Assembly (NCBI GenBank): GCA_025360605.1
Contig: JANYBV010000040.1
Location: 2,193-66,192 of the forward strand
From: Alphaproteobacteria bacterium
GTDB taxonomy: Bacteria > Pseudomonadota > Alphaproteobacteria > Rickettsiales > SXRF01
Reading direction: 5' to 3'
Length of the DNA: 64,000 bases
Below are positions 3,425 through 45,330 of this stretch, piece after piece. Both the position numbers and the translations under genes were made by a program. Position 1 is the first letter of the stretch; each line of letters starts with the position of its first letter. The notes beneath the pieces were generated by a model. That model was not told the origin of the DNA and searched no databases. It saw only the letters and a program-made list of their open reading frames with translations.

Positions 3425-3566
3425 CGCAGTACCCTGATGCATGGTTTTCGGTAACAACAGAAGTTTATAGGCTATTTATCCGGACTCGCAAGACGTGATT
3501 CAAGGCTTATAATTCCTTTGTAACCTGCCGCACAATTCCTTATAACCTACAGGACTATTTATTCTT

Positions 3567-7231: not shown

Positions 7232-7235
7232 ATCC

Positions 7236-10298: not shown

Positions 10299-11034
10299 CG
10301 GTCGGTATTGCGTCTAAGGGGGTATATCTTACCCACTCATATTCAGCTGAAGCAGGCGCGGTGTAATTAAACGGTCCAAGCCAGCCATTGACCAATTTTG
10401 ATCCTGACCAGAGAGACATATAAAACCTCTGCGGATGCAGCGGAAGATTTTTGGCCCCCACTTTTGTCTGGAATACCTGTTTGCCATCCACATACCATGT
10501 GATTCGGGTAGGTTCCCAGACGAATTTATAGGTGTGGAATGCAGCAGAGGCATCAAAACCAAGATTGATATTAACACCGCCATAATTTTTATTATTAGCG
10601 AAGTAGTTTACCTGTACCGTTTTAGGGTTCTTTCCGAGAAACTCAAAATCGATTTCATCGTGAACAGGATCGCCGGTGTAAGTAAAGAAGTTGCTATTAA
10701 GGCCAGAGCCCTTCGCGCTACGCATACTTACTTCATACACCCCGAAGGACATTTTTTTCATGCTCTGAACTTCACCACAGCCATAAGGCGCAACTTTGCC
10801 GCCCTTATCCGACAGAGTGATTTTCACCCTCTGCTCGTCTGCCGATATTGCGCTTGCCAGCCACTCGCAGGACTGTATGGGGCCGTTTGTCCATCCGTTG
10901 GAAATATACCAGAGCTTACTATCGAGCTGAGGGTATTTATTAGCAAAGAAAGGTATTGTGGCAGCCTGCGCATACGAAAAGCCGAATGCGGAGAAGGCAC
11001 ACACAATAAAAATCGTTCTGGATATTTTCATCAT
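10276..11034 (-). CDS. secreted GH16 endo-beta-1,3-1,4-glycanase (ExoK-like)
   Basis: Signal peptide MMKISRTIFIVCAFSAFGFSYAQA. Catalytic GH16 motif DEIDFEFLG (ExDxxE). Pattern FHTYKFVWEP..ITWYVDG is typical of lichenase-type GH16. Confidence 0.85.
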   Translation of the reverse strand: MMKISRTIFIVCAFSAFGFSYAQAATIPFFANKYPQLDSKLWYISNGWTNGPIQSCEWLASAISADEQRVKITLSDKGGKVAPYGCGEVQSMKKMSFGVYEVSMRSAKGSGLNSNFFTYTGDPVHDEIDFEFLGKNPKTVQVNYFANNKNYGGVNINLGFDASAAFHTYKFVWEPTRITWYVDGKQVFQTKVGAKNLPLHPQRFYMSLWSGSKLVNGWLGPFNYTAPASAEYEWVRYTPLDAIPTDASGIGR

Positions 11035-11083
11035 AAGATATCTCTCTGATTCTATTTTAGATTACATGTTTATAATATAACAC

Positions 11084-12145
11084 TTATACGACTGCCATAA
11101 AATCTTTGGCGCTTGTCAGACGTCGAATGAGTCTGCGGCCCGGAACTTCAACAGTATGATACACCAATGAGGCCGATATTACACTCGTTAATACAGCGAT
11201 AATGATGACTTCCGGTGAATAAAAATCATAGTCCGGCAAAAGCTGCCGCATGGCATTCTTCGTCAAACTCCATACAAAGGAGTGAATCATATACAAGCTG
11301 TAGGAAATTTCGCCCAGATACGTCGCATAGCTAGTGGCGAGAAGTTTTCCAATTCGATCTTTATCCGATGTTAAGCTTATAATTAATAAGTCAAATATCA
11401 GGTCGTAAATGGCGATATCCTCAATAGGTAAATACAATGAAAATGCAAAAAATACGATTAAAAATAGTCCCGAAAATGGGCTAAATTTTGCGCTAAAACG
11501 ATACTGCCTGTTGAGCTGATACAACGTCGCCCCAAACATAAATTCAGGAACGATATGAAGCAGCGGCGTGGGTTGTACAAGCGTGTGAATAGTAATCACA
11601 CACGCAATGAGCAACAGCCATTCCAGCATGGGTTTAAACCTGAAGAGCGCCATGGCCACCAGCGGATACAGCAAATACATGAACCATTCGGCAGAAATAG
11701 ACCATGCGGGGATATTGGGGGAACCTATGCCAAGCCATGCGTGCAACATCAGAAGATTGGCTGCAGCTGCGCCCCATTGATAGGAGTCGTTATCCGGCGG
11801 TAGTTTTTTGAAAAGCACTATAGCGGTAACATACAGGGCATACATCAGCCCCATGGTAAATACATGCACCGGATACATACGCGCGACACGATAACCTATA
11901 AATTTTATGTAGGCCTGACGACTGAACGACTCTGCAAATTTTAGGCTATAAACATGATGAATGATGTAGCCGCTTAATATGAAAAATAGATCAACTCCCA
12001 TGCTGCCACGCGCAATGAGGGAATTGATGTAATAATTGTGGTTGGGAATACCGGAGTTTCCAAAGTGAAATAACACAACCATGAGTGCCGCCCAGAAGCG
12101 GATACCTGTCAAAGCTGCGAGTGTCGAAGGCTCTTTTGCGCTCAT
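11084..12145 (-). CDS. acyltransferase-3 family membrane protein (ExoH-like O-acyl/succinyl transferase)
   Basis: LTGIRFWAALMVVLFHF and GVDLFFILSGYII motifs, about 10 TM segments. Sits directly upstream of the ExoK-like gene, as in exoH-exoK. Confidence 0.8.
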   Translation of the reverse strand: MSAKEPSTLAALTGIRFWAALMVVLFHFGNSGIPNHNYYINSLIARGSMGVDLFFILSGYIIHHVYSLKFAESFSRQAYIKFIGYRVARMYPVHVFTMGLMYALYVTAIVLFKKLPPDNDSYQWGAAAANLLMLHAWLGIGSPNIPAWSISAEWFMYLLYPLVAMALFRFKPMLEWLLLIACVITIHTLVQPTPLLHIVPEFMFGATLYQLNRQYRFSAKFSPFSGLFLIVFFAFSLYLPIEDIAIYDLIFDLLIISLTSDKDRIGKLLATSYATYLGEISYSLYMIHSFVWSLTKNAMRQLLPDYDFYSPEVIIIAVLTSVISASLVYHTVEVPGRRLIRRLTSAKDFMAVV

Positions 12146-12173
12146 GCGATCGACAACCTATACAAAGGCACCC

Positions 12174-13040
12174 CTACGTGTTGGATGGATGCGATGTGTT
12201 GAATGATTGATCGAGGTATTCAATAAACTTTGTAATTCGCTTGGGCTGCTTTCTCTCCGCGGATTTATTCAATACGGTGCCAATAACATTTGCACCGGAC
12301 AGAACATGGAGTGATTTTTTCAGCTCGGCAATTTTTGTATTGCCGTCATTCACTACCAGTAACGTAGCATCAACATGCGGCAAGAACGCAATAGGATCAT
12401 CCTGCGCGAGGGTAGGAGGCATATCATAAATGATGAAGCGGTCAGGGTAGCGCGAACGCAGCTCCTTAGCTAACGCGGCAATCTTGGGGGAGCCAAGGAC
12501 TTCAGAGGAATTATCAATCTGCTGTCCGGCAGGCAGGATGGTCATGCGTTCAAAGGACGGGCGAAGGAGGCATTGAGAAATCGGCACATCGTGTAAGAAG
12601 TAGTCGGTGATGCCAAATTCCGGCTGGATGCCGAGATATTCGGTGACGTTAGGTTTGCGCAAATCCAGATCAACCAGCAAAACGGTTTGTTTTAAGTCAA
12701 GGGCGATACTAACCGCCAGATTAAGCGCGATGGTCGTTTTCCCGTCACCATAATTGGCGCTGGTAATGCCTAGCGTTTTCATGCCGGACTGATTCATAAT
12801 CTGTAGAATTTTGGTACGCAGAATACGGAAAATATCTGCTTCCTGACTACGGGTGTGATGAGCAATGATGTGATGCTCTTCCAGATAACCTGGCTGGATT
12901 TGGATGGTGTTGCTGACAACAATGTTCTTGGGCTCTTCGCGCGCAGTCTGTGCAGCGATTTCTCGTTGCTCCGACTGATGCTCAAGCTCAATCTTCCTTT
13001 GCTCTCTGGCCTTCTGTAATGCTTTTTCTAATTTATCCAT
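12174..13040 (-). CDS. P-loop ATPase of the BY-kinase / CpsD-ExoP C-terminal type
   Basis: Walker A-like GITSANYGDGKTTIALNLA, Walker A'/B VLLVDLDLRKP and IIYDMPP. Encoded directly after the PCP gene. No C-terminal tyrosine cluster is visible. Confidence 0.75.
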   Translation of the reverse strand: MDKLEKALQKAREQRKIELEHQSEQREIAAQTAREEPKNIVVSNTIQIQPGYLEEHHIIAHHTRSQEADIFRILRTKILQIMNQSGMKTLGITSANYGDGKTTIALNLAVSIALDLKQTVLLVDLDLRKPNVTEYLGIQPEFGITDYFLHDVPISQCLLRPSFERMTILPAGQQIDNSSEVLGSPKIAALAKELRSRYPDRFIIYDMPPTLAQDDPIAFLPHVDATLLVVNDGNTKIAELKKSLHVLSGANVIGTVLNKSAERKQPKRITKFIEYLDQSFNTSHPSNT

Positions 13041-13057
13041 ATGCCTGCTTTATCGCC

Positions 13058-14854
13058 TTACGAAGATTTCCGTTGAGAGAGTTTAGACTGGAATGATTTA
13101 AATGGTGTTACTACGAACCGCATAAAGAGAAACTTTAGCAGGCTGAAAATAGTTTTAATTGCGATGATATAAGGCTTAATGCCAGCGGCTGTTTTTTTCT
13201 CATCCTCAGCCAGAATATGTGGAATCACCACGAGCGGCATGGTGCCGATTACATACGCCAGATGGCTATCGCCGTAGATATTCTGGTTGGTTGCTTCCGT
13301 GACAACAACGGCTCCGACGCCTCCCATGAACGACAGCACAACACCGGCAAGAATCAGCAAGAGATGTTTAGGTTGTGTATCTTCGGGAACGGCGGGAGGG
13401 TTGATCACGGCGAGGCGCTGGCCTTTTCGGCCCAGCTCAAGCTGTTCGGTCATATCAGCGGACATCTTCTTTTCTTTGAGTTCGCGATAACGCAGTTGGC
13501 TGTTTTCATAGTCGCGGGTGAGCTTTGCCATCTCTTGTTCAATTTGCGGATTAGCCGCAATATTACGCTCAAATTTGCTTTGCTGTTCTTCGATAGCTTC
13601 TTTTTGCTTCACAAGCGCCTTATGTTGGGCCTGCGCGGTTTTTAGCTGTGAAGCGAGCTGTATATAGGCTGGGTTATCAGCATCAGCCTTAAGGTCATCA
13701 ATGTCATCAGGATCGGCATCTTTTGCATCAGCGGATTCTTTTGCTTTTCCACCTTTAGAGGCCTTGGTTGCTTCCATTTTTTTCAGCTGCCCCTGAAGCG
13801 CGATTACATCCGGATGGTCAGCACCTTTGGTGGCTTTTGCGGCTTCCAGATTGGTGCGCAAATCGGCAATTTGGGCATCCAGTTGCGGATTCACGTGCTG
13901 AGATCCGATTTGGGCTCTTAGCGCCTGAATTTGCATCCGCGCCTTCACCACGTCAGGATGATCAGGGCCATATTGTGCGGTAAGCGTTGAGTATTGGGTT
14001 TCAAGCGCTTTCAACTGGGTGGCAGGGGTGGTAAGCAACTGTCCGTCGGCAATGACCCTTGAATAGGGTTCTACGATCGCAAGCTGCGCGCGCAGGGCAC
14101 CCTGCGTTCCTTCATTACTGGTAATCTGGCTCGCCAGACTTTGTACGGTAACATTCAAATTTGCTGCAGTTTGCTGGTTAAATATCAGCGATCCGGGGCC
14201 GGATTCACCATTTTTAGCGCGAAACTCTGCAATCGATTTTTCCTGAGCGGCCATTGATCCTTCTAATGCACTGATCTGAGCGGCCAAGAATGCCGAGGTT
14301 TCCTGAGCCTGCATGCGGCGCATCTTAAGGTCTTCGTCCAGAAAGCGGGTGACGAGTTCATCCGTTACTTTCTGAGCGGTGATAGGATCTTTATAATCAT
14401 AACTTACTTCAAAGGCGATGGCAGAAAGCTGTTCTGCGGTTTGCTTCGATGCGGCAGCAGGATTGGAAATATTGCCGCTGATGAATTCAACTTTAACTTT
14501 TTTACGCATCTTGCTCGTAAGAATCGCGATTGGAGTATTTTCTACTTCGTTCGGATAGAGCGAGAATTTATTGATAATCTGTGACAGTGACTCAACCGAG
14601 GTTACTTTCTGCTGAATCTGGTTAATACGCTGATCTGCCAACTGTTCAATCGCTTCATTGGGATTGGAAATAGGATTGGTTACGTTGGTTGAAACAAATG
14701 ATTGCTCAATCTGCACTGTGGCGGTCGAGCGGTAGTTCGACCAGCTCATGACGAAGACCATGGCAAAAAAGAACAAAAGAGAGGTCGTAATAAAAAATAT
14801 TTTTTTACGCCGGTCAAAGATCGCAATAATGTCTCTTAGCGTGAGTTCTTCCAT
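13058..14854 (-). CDS. polysaccharide co-polymerase / chain-length determinant (Wzz-GumC-ExoP N-terminal type)
   Basis: 598 aa. N-terminal TM segment (IFFITTSLLFFFAMVFVMSW), a long coiled-coil periplasmic region, and a second TM segment (LLLILAGVVLSFMGGVGAVVV). Followed by the separate kinase-like ATPase. Confidence 0.75.
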   Translation of the reverse strand: MEELTLRDIIAIFDRRKKIFFITTSLLFFFAMVFVMSWSNYRSTATVQIEQSFVSTNVTNPISNPNEAIEQLADQRINQIQQKVTSVESLSQIINKFSLYPNEVENTPIAILTSKMRKKVKVEFISGNISNPAAASKQTAEQLSAIAFEVSYDYKDPITAQKVTDELVTRFLDEDLKMRRMQAQETSAFLAAQISALEGSMAAQEKSIAEFRAKNGESGPGSLIFNQQTAANLNVTVQSLASQITSNEGTQGALRAQLAIVEPYSRVIADGQLLTTPATQLKALETQYSTLTAQYGPDHPDVVKARMQIQALRAQIGSQHVNPQLDAQIADLRTNLEAAKATKGADHPDVIALQGQLKKMEATKASKGGKAKESADAKDADPDDIDDLKADADNPAYIQLASQLKTAQAQHKALVKQKEAIEEQQSKFERNIAANPQIEQEMAKLTRDYENSQLRYRELKEKKMSADMTEQLELGRKGQRLAVINPPAVPEDTQPKHLLLILAGVVLSFMGGVGAVVVTEATNQNIYGDSHLAYVIGTMPLVVIPHILAEDEKKTAAGIKPYIIAIKTIFSLLKFLFMRFVVTPFKSFQSKLSQRKSS

Positions 14855-33830: not shown

Positions 33831-34628
33831 CTATTTTTTCTTTTTACGGCTTTTGGATACCAGCTTGGTAAAATGACCTGACGAAGCAGGTTTATCCGAC
33901 GGTGTTGCTTTATCCGGCGCTGCCGGTGTTGCAGCATCATTGGAAACAGCTAACTGCATGCTGGCTGGTTCCGTAGGTTTGGCGGCCTCAACAGGAGCAG
34001 GAGGTGCAACAAACCCTTTCTTGTCGATCTTTTTAAGGTTCTGCCTGATTTCGATGACATACTCGCCCTCATCACGCTTGATCACCTGCAATTCAAGGCG
34101 CTGCACAGGGGATTGTCCTTTTGTCGCTTTTACATACGTCATGATTTTTAGTTTATTTAATCCAGGGACGCTGATCTCAGGGAATTCCTCATGAAGGTTC
34201 ATCAGCTGTTCGCCTGCTTCTTGCATGGTCGAGAATTTTTTAGTGCGCAGCGCGGCACGCATGACCGGATGTCCCATATTCGGGTGGCGGCGGGCAATGG
34301 GTTTACGCATAGGGTGTTTGCGTAGCGGCACATCTAATTTAGTGAGCGTCAGTGTCCATTTGCCACTGGGGATCTGGTGCATGGTAATCCGGCCAAAGTT
34401 ACCCAGAAAACCTTCTTTCTTTTCTTTCTCTGTCAGCTCTAGCGAATGCACCCACAGTACAAACGATTTTTTGTCCAGCGGATCGGACATCTTGGGGGCG
34501 AGGGTGAATTCCTCGGCAAATTTATTGGTAATCATCTGCGCCTGTTCAAGCGTCTGGAAGCGGAACAATGAATGTATCATCGCCTGCACGGACTCATGGG
34601 CAACAAACGCGTAGTTCTTTTTATTCAT
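33831..34628 (-). CDS. hypothetical protein (Lys-rich C-terminus)
   Basis: 265-aa ORF with an ATG start and host-like codon usage. A/P-rich linker and a KSRKKKK tail. No family recognised. Confidence 0.5.
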   Translation of the reverse strand: MNKKNYAFVAHESVQAMIHSLFRFQTLEQAQMITNKFAEEFTLAPKMSDPLDKKSFVLWVHSLELTEKEKKEGFLGNFGRITMHQIPSGKWTLTLTKLDVPLRKHPMRKPIARRHPNMGHPVMRAALRTKKFSTMQEAGEQLMNLHEEFPEISVPGLNKLKIMTYVKATKGQSPVQRLELQVIKRDEGEYVIEIRQNLKKIDKKGFVAPPAPVEAAKPTEPASMQLAVSNDAATPAAPDKATPSDKPASSGHFTKLVSKSRKKKK

Positions 34629-34881
34629 ACATGGATCACTGAAGGTTTATTACCTGAACACCCTATTAACCTACTAAAATTATATAAAATTTTGGTTAAT
34701 CAACGCACTAATAGTATTGGGGGAGGTTTTAGGCTGCATGGGGCAATTGTGACAATGCTGTCATAATTGGTGAGATGAAATTGTCATATTTATCCGTAAC
34801 CTAATCATCAACCTTTCACACTAACCAAGGGAGGAATTCGTTAGAATGTGGGGTATATAGACAAGGGATAAACAAATTTTT

Positions 34882-35871
34882 ATGCAGCAAGCGATCCAAA
34901 CAAATCCGGCCATTGCCATACCAAACCTTAATATTGCCATGAGCAAGAGCGATAGCTCGCGTATTGAAGGGGATGCATTGAATATTCAGGCAGGGCTGGG
35001 CGGTAGCCTAAGCTTCGTAAGGTCGAGCTTAAGCCAGTTAAAAATGCTTCTGGGTATGGTGGGGAAGGGTAAGCAATCGGCACAGGCGCAAAGTACCATT
35101 AATTCTGCCATCGCTAAAGCCAAAAGCAGAATAGACCAACTGGAGTCCGAAGAAAATAGCAAAGGCGGTAGTGTCGATCTACAGGCTAAATTTGAGCTGG
35201 TTATCTACGGATTTATGTCAGCAAGAGCTAAGAAATTTTATGATAGCATTGATGAAAAATCGACCTTCCACTTGGCCCATGTGAATGAGGATGGTGAATT
35301 ATCCGCTCATAAAGTGAAGCACATTGATGGTAAGAGCATCAAACGCCTGTTGAGTTTGATTAAGTTCCACAGCTTGGATACCGCTAATAAAAAGAAAGCC
35401 TTATACGATACGTTTGGTGCGGAAGCCGCCGAGGAAGAGGGAACCCCCAAGGATAAAGAAACGCTGGTTAAAAAGAAGAAGGAGCTGCTAGAGCTTCATG
35501 AAGCGCTCGATACGATGGAAGCGTATAAAGCCTACATGATCACGCGTAAATTCAAACCGGATGTTGCCGCCGCCATGATTGAAAAAAATCATCAGGCGAT
35601 TATTGTGGCGCACGATCAGATCGATGAAGTGGCAAGAAAATACGATGAGCTGATTGCGGATGTCAATAATGGCATGGCAATGGCAACGCTGAAGGTGGCC
35701 AAGCTGAAAATGAAAAAGATTTTAAAAGATGATGTGATTGATCATATCCTCCTTGACCAGCCGGTTACGTCGCAGGTTGTAAGCGGAGGCATGCCCGCTT
35801 TTGAAAGTATATCCGGATTTCCTGGGCTTTCGTCGTTGCAAACCGCCTTTTCCATGCCGGTTGCCACCTAG
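34882..35871 (+). CDS. hypothetical coiled-coil protein
   Basis: 329-aa ORF with an ATG start, K/E-rich helical segments and no TM or signal sequence. No family recognised. Confidence 0.5.
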   Translation: MQQAIQTNPAIAIPNLNIAMSKSDSSRIEGDALNIQAGLGGSLSFVRSSLSQLKMLLGMVGKGKQSAQAQSTINSAIAKAKSRIDQLESEENSKGGSVDLQAKFELVIYGFMSARAKKFYDSIDEKSTFHLAHVNEDGELSAHKVKHIDGKSIKRLLSLIKFHSLDTANKKKALYDTFGAEAAEEEGTPKDKETLVKKKKELLELHEALDTMEAYKAYMITRKFKPDVAAAMIEKNHQAIIVAHDQIDEVARKYDELIADVNNGMAMATLKVAKLKMKKILKDDVIDHILLDQPVTSQVVSGGMPAFESISGFPGLSSLQTAFSMPVAT

Positions 35872-35977
35872 ATTTCTCATAATTTTTTATATCACTAGCG
35901 CACATTTGATCGGGATCAAAGTCCCGATCATGCTTATTTGGTTAGTTGCGGTTATACTAACTTTAAGAAAGCGCCTT

Positions 35978-36190
35978 ATGAAAAAAATAATTCTTTCTAC
36001 CCTCGAAGTGGTGTCATTTTCTTCTCCTTTGTTTGCAGCCAGCGATGCCTTTAAGGCGGGCGACTGGATGGTCAGGGCGCGGGCTCTTTATGTTATGCCG
36101 CAGGAAAGCAGCATCCTCTCAATTGGTGGTGCGGTGAAGGTAGATATCGATCCGTTGCTGATTGGTGTAGGTGTTGGGTATAAATTTTAA
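35978..36190 (+). pseudogene. ompW remnant (in-frame internal deletion)
   Basis: The 70-aa product joins an OmpW-like N-terminus (signal peptide, AGDWMVRARALYVMPQESS) directly to an OmpW-like C-terminal strand (VKVDIDPLLIGVGVGYKF). About 140 aa of barrel are missing. Confidence 0.55.
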
Positions 36191-36210
36191 TTTTTTAGGG
36201 AGGTTATATT

Positions 36211-36453
36211 GTGTTTAACGAAAAACTGGAACTAGCTCAGGAATTCCCCGAGCATAAAGATACGATTCATAAGCTGAAGACCAGCGATGCTCATTTTGCA
36301 AGGCTTTTTGACGAATACCACGAGGTCATCAGGCAGGTTTCCAGAATTGAGCAGGAGATTGAAACCGTTGCTGACCATGTGGCAGAAGGTTTTAAAAAGA
36401 AACGCCTCGCGCTCAAAGACGAACTGTTTAAAATGCTTAAAAAAGCGGCTTAG
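36211..36453 (+). CDS. DUF465 (YdcH-like) small protein
   Basis: 80 aa, GTG start. The pattern H...I..LK..D..F..L...Y.....I..IE is typical of DUF465. Confidence 0.7.
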   Translation: MFNEKLELAQEFPEHKDTIHKLKTSDAHFARLFDEYHEVIRQVSRIEQEIETVADHVAEGFKKKRLALKDELFKMLKKAA

Positions 36454-36478
36454 GCTGCATTCTTTAATCATCTGAAAA

Positions 36479-36507
36479 AGCATGCGCGGTGGCGTATGCT
36501 TTTTTTG
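36479..36507 (+). terminator. intrinsic terminator after the DUF465 gene
   Basis: AGCATGCG-CGGTGG-CGTATGCT stem-loop followed by TTTTTTT. Confidence 0.6.
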
Positions 36508-36561
36508 TTTATTGAAAGATAAGCCTTTGAATCTATTAAGATGGATTGATTGGGGGTATTG

Positions 36562-36570
36562 TGCTATAAT
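36562..36570 (+). promoter_or_regulatory. possible extended -10 promoter element (TGcTATAAT)
   Basis: TGCTATAAT lies 24 nt upstream of the ATG at 36594. The same 9-mer also occurs at 17041-17049 in the EPS divergent region. Confidence 0.3.
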
Positions 36571-36593
36571 TGCCCAATAACAGAAAGTTGTGT

Positions 36594-37385
36594 ATGACCG
36601 ATTCCATATCCACAATACACGCGCCACCGCCCGCCATTGACACACCTGCTGTGCAATATGCGCATGCTTCGACGCATCCTGCGGCTGCGAAGACAGATGC
36701 CGTGGCTAATGCGACTTTAATCAACCAGATGGCCGTGGCTTCGGCGGAAAATGCCGCAATCACCAACGATATATTGATGTTAGGCAACACTCAGGCGAAC
36801 ACGCAGGCAGATATTCATGCCCATGAAGGAGTGGTGAATCTGGATACCACGACATTTTTATTGCTCAATAACCTCAGTGCATCGCTTGGGGCAGGGACTA
36901 TTGGTGGCAACCTTACTGCCGAGCAGTTGCAGGCCTCCGATATATTACAGCAAGACGTGCTCGGGCTGGAACAAGCTGCTCAGTCCACCACCCATATTGC
37001 TTTGACAGATGCTGCAAGCACCGTTGATCTCAGCCTTGCTGCGCAAAGCATAGCCAGTGGTATAAGTACGGTTGCCTCCGTCAATACCGCTGCTCCAACG
37101 TCGGATTTGAATGCTCTCACGCCCACGCAGCTGAAGCAACTTTCGGCCATACTTGCGCCGGTTGCCAACCAGCCGCTGACACAGGCACTGTTGACGCAGA
37201 TACAATCGCAATTGGCGGCAATACAGGTGCTTCCGCAGCAGCTCACGTTAAGCACTATTTTTCTGGTACAAAATTATATGGCGGGGGAACACACAACGAA
37301 TAGCTCCATACAGAAAAAGAAAGAAACCGTTACCCCTGTTGGATCTATCGATAAGGTTGCTTCTGAAGACGTCGCTATTATTTAA
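36594..37385 (+). CDS. hypothetical Ala/Thr/Gln-rich protein
   Basis: 263 aa from the ATG at 36594; the ORF track's TTG at 36570 falls inside the putative -10 box. No TM or signal sequence. No family recognised. Confidence 0.45.
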   Translation: MTDSISTIHAPPPAIDTPAVQYAHASTHPAAAKTDAVANATLINQMAVASAENAAITNDILMLGNTQANTQADIHAHEGVVNLDTTTFLLLNNLSASLGAGTIGGNLTAEQLQASDILQQDVLGLEQAAQSTTHIALTDAASTVDLSLAAQSIASGISTVASVNTAAPTSDLNALTPTQLKQLSAILAPVANQPLTQALLTQIQSQLAAIQVLPQQLTLSTIFLVQNYMAGEHTTNSSIQKKKETVTPVGSIDKVASEDVAII

Positions 37386-37601
37386 GCACACGGTCACGCC
37401 TGAATATGCTGACTTTATCGTGTCCATAGTGAAATGATCTCCGTAAAATATGCCAAAAACTCCAGAAAATTAGTGGGTTGATAGGGTTAATGTCTTCCAT
37501 ACGTTATTCTGGGATAAAAGCTTAACAAAATCGTCATAAAATGCCTGCACAGGTCTGCTATATTTACAGCTAGCTCAAACCATATTTAAATGAGATTGAA
37601 T

Positions 37602-37721
37602 ATGAAAACTTCTAATAAAAAAACGATGGTGCTGAACGCTCTGCTTCTGGTGTCGCTACTCATGCTGACAGGCTGCATGAAGGGCTTTTTTATGCTCGGC
37701 GGCCATCATTATCATCGATGA
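37602..37721 (+). CDS. possible small lipoprotein (39 aa)
   Basis: MKTSNKKTMVLNALLLVSLLMLTGC... with lipobox LTGC. Not in the ORF track because it is under 60 aa. Ends 13 nt before the putative att repeat. Confidence 0.35.
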   Translation: MKTSNKKTMVLNALLLVSLLMLTGCMKGFFMLGGHHYHR

Positions 37722-37734
37722 TATAAAATGATAC

Positions 37735-37750
37735 TATGGCGGGCGGAGAC
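37735..37750. repeat. putative distal att repeat matching the tRNA-Ser 3' end
   Basis: tatggcgg-gcggagac here, against tatggcggagcggagagg at 42331-48. This gives 8+7 matching nt with a 1-nt gap, in direct orientation. Confidence 0.35.
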
Positions 37751-37810
37751 CAGCCTAACAATGCTCTGTAATCCATTATAGCAGCCATTTTCAAAATTTC
37801 CTCTCAAAAA

Positions 37811-37831
37811 TCTACTCGCATTTCTACTCGC
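37811..37831. repeat. tandem 9-bp direct repeats (candidate integrase arm-type sites), left end
   Basis: TCTACTCGC-att-TCTACTCGC. Compare TCTACCCGT-aaa-TCTACCCGT at 42200-42220, with the same 12-nt spacing and orientation. Confidence 0.45.
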
Positions 37832-37884
37832 GTATGGGTTGGCTTGTAGGCTACTTTACCGGATGAAAATGGAGGTGCTACCCA

Positions 37885-38631
37885 TCATTTTTTAATAAGG
37901 ACTATTATATTTTTTCCATATTTAGATAAAAGAAACCCGTTGCCTTCACCAATACCGCGCACTTCCTTTAACTGATTTTCAGTAATGGGTTTATAGCGGG
38001 AAAATGCTAATAGCAGCCTGTCAGGCAGGTATCGCATCTGGCTATTGGGTAATGTTTTGCGCCATGTCTTCAGTCTGGCAAGGATGGCGTGGCCTTGTGT
38101 ATCATCAGTATCCGGTGGAAAACTGGAATACCAGTGGCAAGCGCTTTTATCAACGTTACCATACGGTTTGTAACGTGAGCATTCAATATAAGGTTCATCA
38201 TCTTTGTTGAATACGTTAACAACAGTTGGCCTCTCACATTTGGGACATTGCTTATACTCAGGGGGAATGGTCGGAAGTTTTGCGGCAGGTTTGGCCATTG
38301 CCTCTTGCGTTTTGGCTTCGATACAATCTAAGCAGGTGTCAGGTTCAGGTTTCTTTTCCAGATATATCAACGATAATGGCGCATGGTTGCAGGCTTCGCC
38401 CTTGCATCGCTTGATGGTAGATATCAGAATAATATCACGTTTTCCGTCCGGGTGTTTGATGTTGGCTGCTTTTTTCCTACATTTTGTACAGGGAAGTTTG
38501 TCAAATAGCTTGCCAGCGGTGGCGGCGGTAATTTCTGTATCAAAGGACTCTGCCCACTGTGAGCGCATTACTCGGGCTTCATGGCCGCAGGCAGAACAGG
38601 TACAAGTTACGAAGTCTAGTTCCATTGTCAT
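37885..38631 (-). CDS. multi-zinc-ribbon protein with HRDC-like C-terminus
   Basis: 248 aa. CxxC pairs (CSACG, CTKCR, CLDCI, CPKCE) plus further Cys/His. The C-terminal LARLKTWRKTL...LPDRLLLAFSRYKPITENQLKEVRGIGEGNGFLLSKYGKNII resembles an HRDC domain. Starts 32 nt downstream of hsdR. Confidence 0.55.
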   Translation of the reverse strand: MTMELDFVTCTCSACGHEARVMRSQWAESFDTEITAATAGKLFDKLPCTKCRKKAANIKHPDGKRDIILISTIKRCKGEACNHAPLSLIYLEKKPEPDTCLDCIEAKTQEAMAKPAAKLPTIPPEYKQCPKCERPTVVNVFNKDDEPYIECSRYKPYGNVDKSACHWYSSFPPDTDDTQGHAILARLKTWRKTLPNSQMRYLPDRLLLAFSRYKPITENQLKEVRGIGEGNGFLLSKYGKNIIVLIKK

Positions 38632-38663
38632 AGCATATCCTGTTGTATCAGAGATTCCCTAAT

Positions 38664-41600
38664 TCACAGATTTTCATAGATATTCTGATGAGCATTTGGA
38701 TAGTTATCATATAAATGCACATAAATATTATCGCACTTATTTTTGAAAATATCTGAATTATAAACCTCTGGCAGCTTATCGCACACCTCCTCAATGGTAC
38801 TAACCACCTTGGCTCTGGTTGATTGTCTTTTCCGCCAATCGAAAATCAACCGTTCTTTCTTGAGCTTATCTAGCAACTCCTTTGCCACCTCTTTCACAGC
38901 TTCTATTTCGCTTTTGGATAGCTTGGGTTCGGGCTTTGTCAGTATATCAAATATCACAAGCTCTTCTTCTGTAAGGTTTTCCCTTACATGACGGGTTTCT
39001 TCCTCGCTTAATGCCCTAGATTGCTTCATAAGCTCCAAGAAAAGCTTCTCTGCATCAATATCGCCAGCATTATAGCTATCAATAAGCTGCTCATACTGTT
39101 CAAGATAGGATTCTCTTGAACCGTTCATTTGAAGAAGTTCTTTTATTTTGCGCTTAATAGATGACTTTAGCAGCTCCAATGTAGTCTTTTGACTATCGGC
39201 ACTAAAAAAGCGCTCTTTTAATTCATCAAAATCAACTTGGGTAATATCAAAAGGCTTGGTAGCTTTTATTTCATAATCGTCAATGGTAATGGATTCATCA
39301 AGCAATGATGCCACTTTTTCCGATAGTGCTTCAATTTTCTTTCTTTCTTTTTCCTTGTCTTCCGGGCTTTGCGGGGAGGAAATTTCCCGCACCTTTTCGG
39401 CAATAATGGATATAGCTAATGTTGGCTTCAAATATTTCTCAGCACGGACATCGGGTAAAATAGCGTTTAACAGGGCTTTAACCTTGCCAGCCAAATTAAA
39501 GAAATCTTCTTTTGATTTTTCATTTTCCAGTATGTGTTCAACTGCATCATCTACCAGTTTGATTCTATGGAAAGTATCCTTTTCATTGAATATAGCTTCT
39601 AGGCTCACCCCTTTTTTCTTCAAATAGGTTTTTATATCCAAAGAAGCATTAGCAAGCATCCGAACAAGCTCATTCTTATCTTCTATTGGATTGCTATCCT
39701 CACCAGAGCCAGTAATTTCCGCTTTTCCATATATGGCTAGGGCTTTCTGCAACTGCTGGAAAATACCGATATAGTCAATAATCATACCGTCTGGCTTATC
39801 TTTCCAAACCCTATTCGCCCGCGCCATAGTCTGCATGAGGGTATGGTCTTTAAGAATCTTGTCTAAATACAAGGTCGAAACGCTGGGCGCGTCAAAACCT
39901 GTAATCCACATGGCACACACAAAAACCAGCCTAAGATTACTATCCGTCGCTTTGAACTTTTCTGCTAAATCCTCACTATTCATGCGCTTTCTATGAGGCG
40001 TTATATCAACACCCTTCTTTTTAAGAGCCTCAACCTCATTTTGAGCGGATGAAACGATAACAGCCATATCCGTATCAACCATATATTGCCGCTTATCTAT
40101 AAGCGTTTGCCTATGGCTTGGGTCACAAGTTAAAAGCTGTTTTTCCAGCTTATCTATATAAACTTTCCAGTGCTTTTGCACTTTATCATACATTTTAACA
40201 GCGGTAGCCTTGTCTATGGCGATATACATCGCCTTTCCCATGAATCCCCTGTTAATGAAATGTTCAACCACATCCGCTGCTATTTTTTCAAGGCGGTCAT
40301 CCCTCGTAATGAGTTCGTAGGTTTTGACATAAGTCTTAGCGAATCGTTCTTCCTGTTCATCGGTCAAATCCGCTTCATCAATAATTGCTTTGATGTCATC
40401 ATCAAGTTTCTTATTCACTATCTGAAGTTCTGGAATACGGTTTTCATAGAACAACTTAACTGTTGCATTATCTCCAACAGATTGCGTGAAATTATAAACA
40501 CTTACATAATCGCCAAATACATCTTTGGTTTTCTCATCACCACGCATTAGCGGTGTACCCGTAAAGGCAAGGAATGAAGCATTAGGGAGGGCTTTCCGCA
40601 TATTCATAGCCAGCACGTTATACTGGCTTCTGTGCGCTTCATCGGTAATTACAATGATGTCATCACGGCTGGATATTTCCCCAAAACTCTCGCCTTTGGT
40701 TTCAGTGCCAAATTTCTGAATCATGGTGAAGATATTCCGGTGGTCTTCTGATAACAGTTTTTTTAAGTTTTCCCTGCTGGTGGCTCGCACATCTTTTTCA
40801 GTAACTGCACCAGAGGCAACAAAGTTCTTATAGATCTGGCTGTCTAAGTCTTCACGGTCAGTAACGATTAGGAAAGTCCAGTTGCCTTGCAATTTTCGCA
40901 ATATTTTTTGCGTCAAAAAAACCATAGAAAAACTTTTGCCGCTGCCCTGTGTATGCCAGAAAACCCCAAGCTTTCCATCCAATTTCTTCCGGCTCTTAAC
41001 GGCTTCAATTGTGTTATTTACGCCTAAATACTGATGATTCTTCGCTATGATTTTAGCAACGCCGCCTTTGCCTTCCATGTAGAGAACAAAGTTTTCAATA
41101 ATATCCAGCAGCCGTGAAGGCTCAAAAACACCTCTAATAACGGTATCGAGCGAAATAATCCCTGTTTCACCCTCAGAGTTTATTTTCTTCCATTCTGAAA
41201 AATGCTCCCAGTCAGAAGTGATAGAGCCGATTTTAGTGGCTGAACCGTTGGAAACCACAATCAGGGCGTTATACCAAAACAGCTGGGGTATCTCTTTTTT
41301 GTAGTGGGTTATGTTATCGTTAAAACCGTTTATCAGATGTTTGTGCGAGGCTTTAAGCTCAATCAGCACTAAGGGAAGGCCATTAATAAAAATGATCAAA
41401 TCCGCTCTGCAATTATACATTTCGCCGGAAATCTTAAATTGCCGCACAATCAGGAAATCATTGTTTGCTGGTATGTTCCAATCAATCACTTTTACTGTGG
41501 CTTGCTGTTCTATACCGTTATGATCTTTGTAGTTTGCCAGCACCCCGTCTTTAAACAGCTTATAGAAGTCTTCATTAGCTCGTACCACGCTCAGGGCGGC

Positions 41601-41846
41601 CTTGCCCTCACACAGGGCATACAGGGCATTGTCTATGGCTTCATTTGGCAAATCAGGGTTGAGCATAGCAAGGGTGGCTTTTAAATAGCGAGGCAAAACC
41701 ACTTCTTCAGGGGTTTTTCTGCCAAACGTGCCATCATCGCCAAACACCTCAGCAGAAGCATCAAAGGACTGGTAGCTGCCAAGTGCCAAGACTTTCTTGA
41801 TAGCCTCAAGTTCTAATGATTCTTCTGAAAAATCGTGCTTTGCCAT
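38664..41846 (-). CDS. hsdR: type I restriction enzyme R subunit
   Basis: 1060 aa. N-terminal nuclease motif ADLIIFINGLPLVLIELK. Helicase motifs HTQGSGKS, VITDEAHRSQ, AFTGTP and QTMARANR. Long helical C-terminus. Apparently intact. Confidence 0.9.
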   Translation of the reverse strand: MAKHDFSEESLELEAIKKVLALGSYQSFDASAEVFGDDGTFGRKTPEEVVLPRYLKATLAMLNPDLPNEAIDNALYALCEGKAALSVVRANEDFYKLFKDGVLANYKDHNGIEQQATVKVIDWNIPANNDFLIVRQFKISGEMYNCRADLIIFINGLPLVLIELKASHKHLINGFNDNITHYKKEIPQLFWYNALIVVSNGSATKIGSITSDWEHFSEWKKINSEGETGIISLDTVIRGVFEPSRLLDIIENFVLYMEGKGGVAKIIAKNHQYLGVNNTIEAVKSRKKLDGKLGVFWHTQGSGKSFSMVFLTQKILRKLQGNWTFLIVTDREDLDSQIYKNFVASGAVTEKDVRATSRENLKKLLSEDHRNIFTMIQKFGTETKGESFGEISSRDDIIVITDEAHRSQYNVLAMNMRKALPNASFLAFTGTPLMRGDEKTKDVFGDYVSVYNFTQSVGDNATVKLFYENRIPELQIVNKKLDDDIKAIIDEADLTDEQEERFAKTYVKTYELITRDDRLEKIAADVVEHFINRGFMGKAMYIAIDKATAVKMYDKVQKHWKVYIDKLEKQLLTCDPSHRQTLIDKRQYMVDTDMAVIVSSAQNEVEALKKKGVDITPHRKRMNSEDLAEKFKATDSNLRLVFVCAMWITGFDAPSVSTLYLDKILKDHTLMQTMARANRVWKDKPDGMIIDYIGIFQQLQKALAIYGKAEITGSGEDSNPIEDKNELVRMLANASLDIKTYLKKKGVSLEAIFNEKDTFHRIKLVDDAVEHILENEKSKEDFFNLAGKVKALLNAILPDVRAEKYLKPTLAISIIAEKVREISSPQSPEDKEKERKKIEALSEKVASLLDESITIDDYEIKATKPFDITQVDFDELKERFFSADSQKTTLELLKSSIKRKIKELLQMNGSRESYLEQYEQLIDSYNAGDIDAEKLFLELMKQSRALSEEETRHVRENLTEEELVIFDILTKPEPKLSKSEIEAVKEVAKELLDKLKKERLIFDWRKRQSTRAKVVSTIEEVCDKLPEVYNSDIFKNKCDNIYVHLYDNYPNAHQNIYENL

Positions 41847-41979
41847 CGCTACGCACCTTGTCTTATTGCAAATTTTTCAAAGTAATGTTCCACTATGAAG
41901 TTAACTAATGTTTTTGAGGTATTGACTGCCAGAAGGGCATCTTTTTGAGTAGGAATATGTGAAATATTGTGGGCATCAC

Positions 41980-42168
41980 TCATCCCGTGGCGTAAAAGCG
42001 ATATTTACCCAGCGCCAGCATTTGCTCTTTACCCTGATAATAATAGCGCCAGCGCCAGTTCTTTCCGCCAGCCGGGGTGATCTCAAGGCACAGGCCATCA
42101 CCATCTGAGACGCGATATAACTTTGATTTTGCCTTTAGGTGCTTAATCGCCATTTCGGTGAGTGCCAT
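41980..42168 (-). pseudogene. N-terminal fragment of a P4-type tyrosine integrase
   Basis: MALTEMAIKHLKAKSKLYRVSDGDGLCLEITPAGGKNWRWRYYYQGKEQMLALGKY matches the Arm-binding (DUF4102-type) domain. It then terminates, and the catalytic domain is absent. Confidence 0.65.
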
Positions 42169-42199
42169 GTTAGAATCCTCTGGTAGTTGCAAGGGTAAT

Positions 42200-42220
42200 T
42201 CTACCCGTAAATCTACCCGT
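42200..42220. repeat. tandem 9-bp direct repeats (candidate arm-type sites), tRNA-proximal end
   Basis: TCTACCCGT-aaa-TCTACCCGT, between the integrase fragment and tRNA-Ser. Confidence 0.45.
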
Positions 42221-42332
42221 ATTCTTTTTGGCTTGCAACACGTCTCTTTGGACACCAAAGGACATCAATCATTGTTTTTTATGAAGAATTTGCCATATAC
42301 TGGATTTAGCTGGACGTTATAAAACCAATATA

Positions 42333-42424
42333 TGGCGGAGCGGAGAGGATTCGAACCTCCGATAAGTTGTTACACCTATAACGGTTTAGCAAACCGCCGC
42401 CTTCGGCCACTCGGCCACCGCTCC
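42333..42424 (-). tRNA. tRNA-Ser (anticodon GCU)
   Basis: The reverse complement folds as a cloverleaf. Acceptor stem GGAGCGG/CCGCTCC, anticodon loop TTGCTAA, long variable arm, T-loop GGTTCGAATCC, and an encoded CCA. Confidence 0.9.
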
Positions 42425-42584
42425 ACACAGTAACTATATTCAGGGCTATTGCTGGTAACCCCACGACCCGAATCTATAATTTTCCGAAGTCAGAGCAAGC
42501 AATCACCAGATAATAGCGCCTTTGTCAACACCCTACTTACGAAGTCTCTCCCCATTAGGATAACGAATATATCAACCTATTGAT

Positions 42585-43196
42585 TTAATCGGCGTATTTA
42601 ACCGAGCATCCATAGGCTTGGGTGGACGCAGTTTCCACTGATTTTCCTGCCAAAAGACTATCAACGGCGGCTTTCACATAATTCTTTGCGCCCTTGAGGG
42701 ATTCAGGGTCGGTGGTTGGCTTGTCGTCAATCGCGCCCATGTAGGCAATGTTGCCTTTTTTGTCGATCACGAACATATGCGGGGTGGATTTAGCACCGTA
42801 CAATTTGCCGATGGAGCCTTCCGGATCGAGGATGTAATGGGTGGAGGCAAGTTTTTGGGCGGTGATAAATTCCTTAGCTTGTTCGGTGGTCATATTGCCC
42901 TGACGGTCCGGCGCGCCGGAATTCACCGTTAACCAGACCACACCTTTCTTAGTGGCATAGGATTGGAGCTTCTGCATGCTGCCTGTGTCATAATGTTTTT
43001 TGACAAACGGACAACCCGGATTGTTCCATTCGACCACGACCACTTTACCAGCGAAATCGGATGGCTTGACGGTTGCGCCGTCCACTGCGGTGGCGGTGAA
43101 GTCCGGTGCAGGTTTGCCTAGTTCCGGTGCTGCGTTGGCAGCCATTGGCATCAGTAAGAACAAGGTGGATAGAAGTACATGTAGGTGACGGCGCAT
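42585..43196 (-). CDS. periplasmic thioredoxin-fold redoxin (AhpC/TSA, PRX-like)
   Basis: Signal peptide. Segment FAGKVVVVEWNNPGCPFVKKHY and a redoxin-like fold pattern. Immediately downstream of the DsbD-like gene. Confidence 0.7.
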   Translation of the reverse strand: MRRHLHVLLSTLFLLMPMAANAAPELGKPAPDFTATAVDGATVKPSDFAGKVVVVEWNNPGCPFVKKHYDTGSMQKLQSYATKKGVVWLTVNSGAPDRQGNMTTEQAKEFITAQKLASTHYILDPEGSIGKLYGAKSTPHMFVIDKKGNIAYMGAIDDKPTTDPESLKGAKNYVKAAVDSLLAGKSVETASTQAYGCSVKYAD

Positions 43197-43197
43197 T

Positions 43198-45330
43198 TTA
43201 CTCTCCTTTGATGGTGTCGATAACGAGTGATTCGGTTAGTATTTGTGGCATAATGATGGGTTTTTTCCCGCCAGCCGGATAAAAGACACACAACGGAACG
43301 CCCTTATACCCGAAGCTGCTGAGAAAATCGGTGATAGTGTCGTTGCGCTTCGTCCAGTCGGCGATCATGAGCGTCACGCCTTTTTCTTTGAATATTTTCA
43401 TCGTGGCATCGGTGTGTAGCGCCACGCGGGCATTGACCTGACAGGTGATGCACCATGCGGCGGTGGCATCAACAAATACGGGTTTTCCTTCCTTCACCAG
43501 CTCGTCCAGCTTCTCTTTGGAGTATTCCACAGTTTCAACCCCATGCTCGGCATGCCCCCCCGGAAGGGCGGCAGTGGCGACTTCCATGCTGCCGAGTTCT
43601 GGCAGGGTGCAAAGCAGCAAGAGGGCGTAGAGTGCCAGCGCGGTGAAGGTGTAGGCCTTGCTGCCTTCTTGAAATAAGGACTTCATCCAGATGACCACCA
43701 CGATCAGCAACATGCTGCTTAGCGCCACGACCATGCCGCCTGCGCCTGTTTGCAGGGTTAGCACCCACATCAGCCAGATCACCGAGGCATACATCGGGAA
43801 AGCAATAAGCTGCTTGAATGTGTCCATCCATGCTCCGGGTTTAGGCAGGAATTTGCGTAGGCGTGGAAACAAACTAATCAGCAAAAAGGGCAGGGCGAGG
43901 CCAAATCCCAGCGCTTCAAACACCAGCAATGCCTGCAACGGCGGCATGGTAAGGGCAGCACCCACGGCTGATGCCATGAACGGGGCGGTGCAGGGGGTGG
44001 CGACGGCGGTGGCTAATACGCCGGTGAAGAAACTACCGCGCGTGGATGATTCATTAGCGATATCGCCGCCAACATTGCCTAACAATACGGGCAAGTGAAA
44101 TACACCAGACAAGCTCAGCCCCACCATGAACAGCAGGTAAATAAGGAAAGCGACAAAGGCGGGCGATTGCATCTGGTAACCCCAGCCGACGGATTCACCC
44201 GTGTTACGCAGTATGAGCAAAATACTGGCGATGACGGTGAAGGTCAGCAAGATACCCAGCGTATAGGCAACGCCCTGAGCGACGACATGCTCATGCTTGC
44301 CACCACCCTTTTTAGCGATAGCGAGAGCTTTTAAAGACAATATAGGCAACACGCACGGCATCAGGTTCAACACCAGACCGCCGAGTACCGCGAACAGTAG
44401 CACCAACGGAAACCATAAATCCTCCGTTTTATCCTGAGATACAGGAGCAGAGCTGGTGGCTACTGTTGTAGGACTCGTGGCGGTGGGCGTTGCAATGGAG
44501 GGGGCATCAAAGACAACATTGTAATGATGTACGATGCTGTCAGAATTGCTGGTGATGCTTAAAATACCGCTCAAAGCACCCATAGGTTGTTCGTCGGCAT
44601 GAAGCGTTTCAAGTACGAGCATATCTTTTTCCACCGTAAATTTTTGCTCGGCGGCATAGTTCATGATGTTTTGTTCACGGATTGAAAACTGGACGGTTTT
44701 CACATCTTTGATTTTCAGCGCACTTAAAGGGATAGAGAACACCAGCTTGTTTTGCGAGAGTGTGAAGCTGCCGTGGGTTTGAATAGGCTCAGGGCGCGTA
44801 TTACGGTGATCGATAAAGAGTGTGCTATCTCCGGATGCGTGCTGAATGCCATCCGTTGCCGGAAGCGATATCTCTAAATCGGCTGATTCGGGTACACAGA
44901 TGTCCTTACACACCAGCCACTGTGCCTTCACCTTAATAGTATAAGACTCTGAGATTTTTAACGACTCGGGAGGGGTAATGGTTACCGGTAAAAATGCGGT
45001 GGATTTATACGAATAGGTGAGCAATGGACCTTCGGCCAGATGGTCAGGAGCCGGCCAGTCAATTTCTCCCGCTTTAAAACCTTCGGGTAGCGTCCATTTG
45101 AGTTCCGTTGGCATTCCGGCATCGCCCGGATTTTCCCAATAGGTATGCCATTGCGGCTTTGGTTCGAGTATCAGCGCGAGATCGATGGGAGTTCCGGCTT
45201 TCACCGAATCATATTCTGCCACCAGCGTTGCCTTGGTATTTTCAAGCTGTTTAAAGGCCGAACCTTCATCGGCCAGAGCAGGGGAAGCTAACGAGATAAT
45301 TAGAACAAGAAGTGCGGTGAGTCTCGACAT
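43198..45330 (-). CDS. thiol:disulfide interchange protein, DsbD/ScsB family
   Basis: Signal peptide and a large N-terminal periplasmic domain. TM core with NLMPCVLPILSLK and ATPCTAPFM. C-terminal thioredoxin motif AAWCITCQ. The ATG at 45330 has GGAG 6 nt upstream. Confidence 0.8.
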   Translation of the reverse strand: MSRLTALLVLIISLASPALADEGSAFKQLENTKATLVAEYDSVKAGTPIDLALILEPKPQWHTYWENPGDAGMPTELKWTLPEGFKAGEIDWPAPDHLAEGPLLTYSYKSTAFLPVTITPPESLKISESYTIKVKAQWLVCKDICVPESADLEISLPATDGIQHASGDSTLFIDHRNTRPEPIQTHGSFTLSQNKLVFSIPLSALKIKDVKTVQFSIREQNIMNYAAEQKFTVEKDMLVLETLHADEQPMGALSGILSITSNSDSIVHHYNVVFDAPSIATPTATSPTTVATSSAPVSQDKTEDLWFPLVLLFAVLGGLVLNLMPCVLPILSLKALAIAKKGGGKHEHVVAQGVAYTLGILLTFTVIASILLILRNTGESVGWGYQMQSPAFVAFLIYLLFMVGLSLSGVFHLPVLLGNVGGDIANESSTRGSFFTGVLATAVATPCTAPFMASAVGAALTMPPLQALLVFEALGFGLALPFLLISLFPRLRKFLPKPGAWMDTFKQLIAFPMYASVIWLMWVLTLQTGAGGMVVALSSMLLIVVVIWMKSLFQEGSKAYTFTALALYALLLLCTLPELGSMEVATAALPGGHAEHGVETVEYSKEKLDELVKEGKPVFVDATAAWCITCQVNARVALHTDATMKIFKEKGVTLMIADWTKRNDTITDFLSSFGYKGVPLCVFYPAGGKKPIIMPQILTESLVIDTIKGE

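Follow-up and report, generated by a model that had tools for sequence, protein, structure and literature searches.

We analysed a 64,000-nt stretch of an alphaproteobacterial genome (hereafter the window), in which a tRNA-Ser(GCU) gene was followed by a short integrase fragment, the type I restriction gene hsdR and a gene for a zinc-ribbon-like protein at positions 37735-42424. According to ARAGORN, this tRNA gene was the only one in the window. The initial annotation had described the region as an island remnant of ~4.6 kb that was immobilised by loss of the integrase catalytic domain. Our results agreed with this view: the window very probably held a genuine foreign island of ~4.6 kb behind tRNA-Ser(GCU), belonging to the P4-like tyrosine integrase family and extending from the tRNA 3' end (42333) to 37735-37749, where the tRNA end was present in a second copy. 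The features of the island were as follows (attL and attR are the tRNA-proximal and the far attachment site; P' and P are the arms next to them).

42333-42424, minus: intact tRNA-Ser(GCU) gene, integration target and B side of attL (ARAGORN; identical gene in two island-free genomes of the same genus)
42333-42346, minus: attL identity block, tRNA positions 63-76 (direct reading and family comparison)
42340-42346, 42339 and 42333-42338, minus: parts of the attL block, namely S (63-69, TCTCCGC), position 70 (T) and positions 71-76 (CCGCCA)
42191-42235, minus: P' arm module, 32-69 nt upstream of the integrase ATG (offsets common to relatives)
42229-42235, minus: CAAGCCA motif of the P' arm
42212-42220 and 42200-42208, minus: direct 9-mers of the P' arm, ACGGGTAGA, putative arm-type sites
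42191-42199, minus: weak inverted third half-site of the P' arm
41980-42168, minus: integrase stub, an open reading frame (ORF) of 62 amino acids (aa) matching Pfam PF13356 (Arm-DNA-bind_3, E 7e-12, profile positions 1-52 of 83)
38664-41846, minus: hsdR, encoding a full-length R subunit of type I restriction with 1060 aa (Pfam HSDR_N, SWI2_SNF2, T1R_D3, T1RH-like_C)
37885-38631, minus: gene for a zinc-ribbon-like protein of 248 aa that contains several CxxC motifs; its C-terminal HRDC match was weak (E 1.6e-4) and did not reach the Pfam cut-off
37811-37846, minus: P arm module (27-nt block with both 9-mers identical in a sibling island)
37840-37846, minus: CAAGCCA motif of the P arm
37823-37831 and 37811-37819, minus: direct 9-mers of the P arm, GCGAGTAGA, 89 and 77 nt from the far core, putative arm-type sites
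37735-37759, minus: attR core, tRNA position 70 absent (direct reading, family comparison and random-sequence statistics)
37751-37759 and 37750, minus: family motif GTTAGGCTG of attR and its 1-nt linker
37743-37749 and 37735-37742, minus: S block of attR, an exact copy of tRNA positions 63-69, and tRNA positions 71-76 plus TA

The 3' terminus of this tRNA (tatggcggagcggagagg, 42331-42348) recurred in direct orientation at 37735-37750 as tatggcgg-gcggagac, one base shorter; this far repeat comprised 7 + 8 bases with one base absent. When the last 16 bases of the tRNA were searched for in direct orientation with at most one edit, 3000 random 10-kb sequences of matched composition yielded no hit. 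Just inside each end there was a tandem pair of 9-mers with 12-nt phasing (42200-42208/42212-42220 and 37811-37819/37823-37831). An exact 9-mer recurring at offset 12 was found at three loci in the window, compared with 0.27 expected per random 64 kb, and two of the three were 42200-42220 and 37811-37831. The cargo had a GC content of 38-44% versus 48-55% in the tRNA-side flank and ~48% in the whole window. The direct repeat, the phased 9-mers at both ends and the AT-rich cargo had each been reported before from reading the sequence, and all of them were upheld here.

The ARAGORN call and the PF13356 match likewise supported the earlier statement that the tRNA was followed by an integrase fragment. 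The stub started 165 nt past the tRNA end (family range 141-180 nt), and its residues 1-56 were colinear with P4-like integrases up to ...LALGKY in a protein alignment, while the last six residues were junk sequence preceding the stop codon. A tblastn search with an intact integrase detected no remnant beyond residues 1-56 in the window. The break after codon 56 was directly joined to the region upstream of hsdR. Intact relatives consisted of the Arm-DNA-bind_3, Phage_int_M and Phage_integrase domains, and the catalytic domain (PF00589) with its active-site residues was absent from the window island. Therefore, the island was a remnant rather than an autonomous member of the family, as had been proposed. 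A promoter scan gave no convincing candidate for an integrase promoter. N-terminal integrase stubs next to a tRNA and arm sites were also observed in other genomes, namely in L096 (10001-10153, 51 aa) and L091 (10001-10213, 71 aa), and longer ones of ~115-119 aa occurred in L087 (9497-9853, 119 aa) and L088. The stubs in L096, L091 and L087 suggested recurrent loss of the 3' part of the integrase gene in this family.

The same genome had a second, intact island of the family. We used positions 37500-42500 as a query against the window's own assembly (2.68 Mb, 57 contigs), and both island ends were matched on contig C40, ~8.8 kb apart. This sibling island (locus L005, G000 contig C40:53000-69000, positions 3496-12400) was located behind tRNA-Ser(GGA). 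Its integrase gene, 158 nt further on (L005 3743-4960), was intact and coded for 405 aa that included all three domains, Arm-DNA-bind_3, Phage_int_M and Phage_integrase. The tRNA-proximal ends of the two islands aligned through the tandem 9-mers into the integrase gene, where the similarity ended after codon 56; the stub was 71% identical to residues 1-56 of the sibling integrase (tblastn). The far ends aligned from the 9-mers to the tRNA-end copy and shared an identical 27-nt block that included both 9-mers. The P arm region was 74% identical overall, and the P' 9-mers differed by one base. The 7-nt blocks were TCTCCGC in the window versus CGCCCTG in the sibling, and the core-adjacent motif was GTTAGGCTG versus GTTAGACAG. 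Every protein of the sibling cargo lacked a Pfam or PADLOC match, including a 1050-aa ORF (6713-9865, minus) for which the only lead was a weak language-model resemblance to PEP-CTERM-type hypothetical proteins.

Comparison with related empty tRNA-Ser sites, which had been suggested as a check, also favoured a foreign island. An identical tRNA-Ser(GCU) was present in two other species of the same genus (G002 and G003), each without the island, and no integrase, 9-mers or tRNA-end repeat were found behind this tRNA in either of them. The genes there were unrelated: an M20 peptidase and a response regulator in G002 and an acyltransferase in G003. On the other side of the tRNA, the redoxin and DsbD genes were syntenic in both genomes. 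Homologues of window positions 33831-37385 were located on the same G002 contig, beyond the M20 peptidase and the response regulator. In the window itself, positions 37590-37721 (plus strand) contained an ORF of 43 aa that had a lipoprotein signal with an LTGC lipobox. This ORF stopped 14 nt short of the far core and may encode a small, entericidin-like lipoprotein that belongs to the chromosomal flank.

Two simpler doubts about the island could be judged from these data. It was hardly conceivable that the repeats were chance similarities and that no island existed at all. Although the far repeat was short (15 matched bases plus a gap), chance origin was ruled out by the 0/3000 random sequences together with the homology of both ends to the sibling and to many relatives. 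Thus, the formal alignment of the ends and the statistical test of the repeats, both of which the initial annotation had called for, came out in favour of an island. A larger island that reached left to about 34500 was also very improbable. The GC content between 34500 and 37000 (41-46%) was below the window average, as such an extension would predict, but the genes at 33831-37385 were syntenic near the same tRNA region in an island-free genome of the same genus, and the family att core and P arm were found exactly at 37735-37846. Moreover, the exact tandem 9-mers in the window included no second att-like core with 9-mers further left. Since the flanking genes were syntenic in the island-free G002, we placed the left boundary at the att core (37735-37759) despite the low GC content of 34500-37000.

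Attachment-site layout in the integrase family

The search for full-length relatives of the integrase fragment and for their att and arm sites, another check proposed earlier, identified 69 related integrase loci in uncultured Alphaproteobacteria labelled Micavibrio, Rickettsiales, Rhodospirillales and similar. Layout was counted in the ~50 loci that included the integrase start. In ~46 of them the tRNA ended 141-180 nt upstream of the integrase start, and in most, tandem 9-mers with 12-nt phasing preceded the start codon by 30-60 nt. The targeted tRNAs were mostly Ser (four isoacceptors), but Asn, Asp, Arg, Glu and Phe were used as well. This P4-like integrase family was common in uncultured Micavibrio-like and 'Rickettsiales'-labelled Alphaproteobacteria.

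Geometry was determined from eleven islands for which both ends were in hand and the far repeat matched the resident tRNA. The order of elements was fixed in all of them. On the tRNA side, the tRNA end was followed by a ~110 nt spacer, CAAGCCA, two direct 9-mers, and then the integrase gene and the cargo. On the far side, a second CAAGCCA was followed by two direct 9-mers, GTTAGGCnG, a linker base, the 7-nt block (63-69) and positions 71-76. Counted from the tRNA end, the P' 9-mers lay at +109 to +115 and +121 to +127 in the relatives and at +111 to +115 and +123 to +127 in the eleven islands. Counted from the far core, the P 9-mers of the islands lay at -88 to -91 and -76 to -79. An inverted third copy of the 9-mer, clearer than that of the window, was located beyond the P' pair in six of the relatives examined. 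The GTTAGGCnG motif (GTTCGACAG in some islands) resembled the tRNA T-loop. The window island agreed with every family measurement (+112/+124, -89/-77, GTTAGGCTG, a 7/7 block match and CCGCCA). By the family standard, its att core, arm sites and spacing thus appeared to be intact and only its integrase gene was broken. The earlier label of a decayed island was accordingly appropriate for the integrase gene and not for the att core, arm sites and spacing, which were canonical down to the 1-nt gap.

The 9-mer sequence varied from element to element (GGGTAGA, CGTATATA, GTGCGTAA, GTATAGA and others), but both arms of a given element had matching 9-mers. On average, the best match was 17.2/21 within versus 14.7/21 between elements, and none of 20000 permutations reached the observed value (P < 5e-5, an approximate figure because the elements were partly non-independent). 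Judging from the geometry and this covariation, the 9-mers were most likely arm-type sites for the N-terminal domain of the integrase; by their position, they may also serve as an operator of the integrase promoter. The 7-nt block varied freely among the islands (TCTCCGC, CGCCCTG, CACTCTG, CTTTGGG, TGCTCGA and others) and was always identical to the resident tRNA. An inverted repeat GGCnG/CCGCC around this block was considered and dropped, as it was not found in all elements (L005 and L059 had GACAG). The pattern GTTAGGCGG-N8-9-CCGCCA was also observed without nearby 9-mers in G000 contig C57:9072-9095 (L135), which belongs to the same genome as the window, and in L123 and L127; these sites may represent either simple hairpins or the far ends of elements from a different family.

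The att layout of the family was now defined as a core, a T-loop-like motif and five arm sites with fixed spacing. Since the family was widespread in uncultured predatory or host-associated Alphaproteobacteria, this layout should help to delimit islands in metagenome-assembled genomes.

Cargo and proposed history

The hsdR product appeared complete: residues 5-1035 matched REase_I of PADLOC (1.5e-179), and it had both a GSGKS and a DEAH motif. No HsdS was found in the genome by Methylase_S (PF01420), and no canonical HsdM was found in it either, the N6_Mtase (PF02384) matches being only partial and located inside 1023-aa and 1374-aa ORFs elsewhere. Judging by these profile searches, the window hsdR was an orphan. 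The R subunit of type I systems needs the M2S1 complex to act. Therefore, hsdR without HsdM and HsdS would be expected on general grounds to provide no type I restriction activity. For the 248-aa protein, a word-based search returned no homologues, and an exhaustive search found only 39 distant small relatives among 1.8 billion representatives; an Atlas lead to HRDC plus Zn_ribbon_Top1 (score 0.85) was a lead only.

When all retrieved loci were searched by tblastn with hsdR and the zinc-ribbon protein, the only matches were an hsdR of 42% identity in G002 and a C-terminal hsdR fragment of 74% identity in G025. The G002 gene was located in a related 11.4-kb island with a complete type I system (L016, contig C20:368000-385000, positions 2790-14210). 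Besides hsdM and hsdR, this island contained two half hsdS genes and encoded a TIR protein of the CAP12/Pycsar type, a second tyrosine recombinase and an HTH_17 protein. Its copy of the family integrase was frameshifted, and its tRNA-proximal end was a tRNA 3' fragment in which the 7-nt block was mismatched with the far end. L016 suggested that type I systems were typical cargo of the family, and it was not the ancestor of the window island. The G025 fragment (L012, contig C46:1-2264), the nearest relative of the window hsdR, ended near a convergent tRNA-Ala(UGC), whose 3' end was ~120 nt away; the hsdR lineage was therefore tRNA-associated elsewhere too.

We propose the following history of the island. 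An element with a P4-like (heterobivalent tyrosine) integrase would once have been inserted at the 3' end of tRNA-Ser(GCU). The first half of its attachment site (attP) would have contained two direct 9-mers, a ~55 nt spacer, GTTAGGCnG, one linker nucleotide and the 7-nt block equal to tRNA positions 63-69; the second half would have contained tRNA positions 71-76, a ~110 nt spacer, two direct 9-mers plus an inverted one, and the integrase gene. Integration would leave an intact tRNA beside the integrase gene at attL and a partial copy of the tRNA end on the far side at attR. A later deletion or replacement probably eliminated all the DNA between integrase codon 56 and a point just upstream of hsdR. 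A single deletion from codon 57 to just upstream of hsdR that took hsdM and hsdS would give the present gene order. With no recombinase left, the island would have been stranded.

Several observations weighed against parts of this reading. The assembly was in 57 contigs, and hsdM and hsdS could lie in unassembled DNA. The ancestral cargo order was not recoverable from the hsdR relatives in G002 or G025: the HsdR of L016 was only 42% identical to that of the window and its gene was in the opposite orientation, and the nearest relative, with 74% amino acid identity over the last 200 residues, was at a contig start beside tRNA-Ala. The relatives were too divergent (65-75% nucleotide identity) for an empty site to be defined at the base level. 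Binding of the integrase to the 9-mers was predicted from sequence pattern, spacing and covariation, and direct repeats spaced by one helix turn are typical of excisionase sites as well (abstract of PMC7498355). The window island was an ordinary stranded mobile element of a kind that was already known, and a solitary hsdR and an orphan zinc-ribbon gene were explained as its cargo.

Alternative functions of the sites and the missing tRNA position

Two other explanations concerned the roles of the sites themselves. The tandem 9-mers might be sites of a recombination directionality factor (RDF) or of another regulator, such as an operator of the integrase promoter, rather than arm sites. The 12-nt phasing resembled that of RDF sites, which the abstract of PMC7498355 describes as direct repeats one helix turn apart; the P' pair was 32-60 nt upstream of the integrase start, and one related island encoded an HTH_17 protein. 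However, both arms had 9-mers, their distances from the core were fixed and their 2 + 3 count was like that of a classical attP; the 9-mers occurred in islands where a helix-turn-helix or excisionase gene went undetected, and they accompanied an integrase with a dedicated arm-binding domain. We therefore regarded an RDF or regulator role in place of arm binding as distinctly unlikely. Slightly less doubtful, though still unlikely, was the idea that the island was not dead but non-autonomous, being excised and integrated in trans by the sibling integrase from contig C40. All its cis sites were canonical, the P arm 9-mer block was identical to that of the sibling over 27 nt, the P' 9-mers were one base apart and the Arm domain of the stub was 71% identical to that of the sibling. 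Moreover, integrase-less elements that are flanked by att sites and rely on a related element, the cis-mobilizable elements (CIMEs), are an established category. On the other hand, the 7-nt blocks (TCTCCGC versus CGCCCTG) and the core motifs (GTTAGGCTG versus GTTAGACAG) differed, so the core sites of the sibling were not the same, and an excisionase gene was recognised in neither island. Excision was checked on contigs, not raw reads, from four metagenome runs over positions 35500-44500. No excision or circle junction was found in the contigs of the two source metagenomes, which were blind to rare forms, and the depth of those contigs was flat (~13) over the island and its flanks. The only apparent joint (37828 to 42333, with 23 letters on one side) came from a contig of another organism with similar 9-mers and was rejected as an attB/attP junction.

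Under the preferred reading of a stranded island with intact sites, the gap in the far repeat still had to be accounted for. Ten of the 11 islands had a far repeat that was short of exactly tRNA position 70, and that of the eleventh (L052) was short of two bases. When 401 genomes of the order were scanned for the pattern, further far ends were recovered, which had the short form wherever 9-mers accompanied them (L125 and L128), and no attP junction was found. Because the same gap was found across the family, its presence in the window was not a sign of decay. Viral and metagenome pattern scans, one each, yielded a single attP-like junction of the family, L112, the other matches being unrelated and without 9-mers. 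L112 was a 1481-bp metagenome contig (TBL_comb47_HYPODRAFT_10096220) with the junction at 842-1150, where the P arm 9-mers, GTTAGGCTG, the core, the P' arm 9-mers and the integrase start followed each other within ~290 nt; the P arm, core, P' arm and integrase start were 208 nt apart. Unlike all integrated far ends, L112 kept tRNA position 70.

A block that is free in composition and yet equal to the resident tRNA would be the signature expected of an overlap region. If the exchange took place solely inside the 7-nt block, then position 70 should reach the far end; instead it was absent. Conservative recombination with an intact tRNA at attL would imply that attP natively lacked this base, and an attP that kept it was rejected on paper since conservative exchange would leave the base in the far repeat. 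With an attP lacking the base, the exchange may occur within positions 71-76, a block limited to 6 nt by position 77, which differed between the ends in 5 of the 11 islands. A more speculative possibility, which we considered rather improbable, was that the absence of position 70 was a designed feature of the family, with exchange in the 7-nt block (63-69), an attP shorter by one base and an 8/7 heteroduplex in which position 70 was bulged. In that model, only the daughter with the intact tRNA would survive, always with a shortened far repeat, and the base kept by L112 would be compatible with it. If the model were true, the sites of the window island would be fully functional and the sibling integrase could move the island. 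The consistent absence of position 70 was not obviously explained by standard conservative recombination and was the part most worth following up.

Comparison with known systems

The best-studied alphaproteobacterial counterpart of this family was ICEMlSymR7A of Mesorhizobium, in which IntS acts at tRNA-Phe. The 283-bp attP of this element contains five arm-type sites, each of which is required for integration, and IntS represses intS when it is bound to attP (PMC11963761). ICEMlSymR7A and P4-like islands resembled our family in the N-terminal arm-binding (PF13356), central and catalytic integrase domains (truncated in the window), in integration at a tRNA 3' end with the integrase gene beside the regenerated tRNA, and in an attP of a few hundred bp with about five arm-type repeats, including arm sites just upstream of the integrase gene. 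Unlike ICEMlSymR7A, the family islands were small (4-11 kb) with no conjugation genes seen, and their 9-mer consensus was nnGnGTAGA or nnGnGTATA versus TGKTGGTATC. They also differed from both in the far-end copy without tRNA position 70 (10 of 11 islands), and the window member in its truncated integrase.

CIMEs have been reviewed for streptococci (PMC5704250, PMC7563491). The window island was similar to them because it had functional-looking att sites, no recombinase of its own and a related autonomous element in the same genome. In contrast, CIMEs move after an integrative and conjugative element integrates alongside them (accretion), whereas the related element of the window was at a different tRNA-Ser gene. 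With respect to type I restriction-modification systems, the window HsdR was alike in being full length with nuclease, motor and C-terminal domains, but the genome lacked HsdS and a canonical HsdM and the system was incomplete.

Finally, the heterobivalent sites of lambda, HP1, L5 and mv4 have a 7-bp overlap whose identity is mandatory and whose composition is free (bioRxiv 10.1101/2023.11.06.565760). Similarly, the 7-nt block of our family was identical at both ends of an island and free between islands, and arm sites were found on both sides. Unlike in those sites, the far end had no position 70, and the two ends had only one further block in common, of 6 nt (71-76). An arrangement of two sites on one arm and three on the other, beside an integrase with a dedicated arm-binding domain, would correspond to the classical heterobivalent attP layout.

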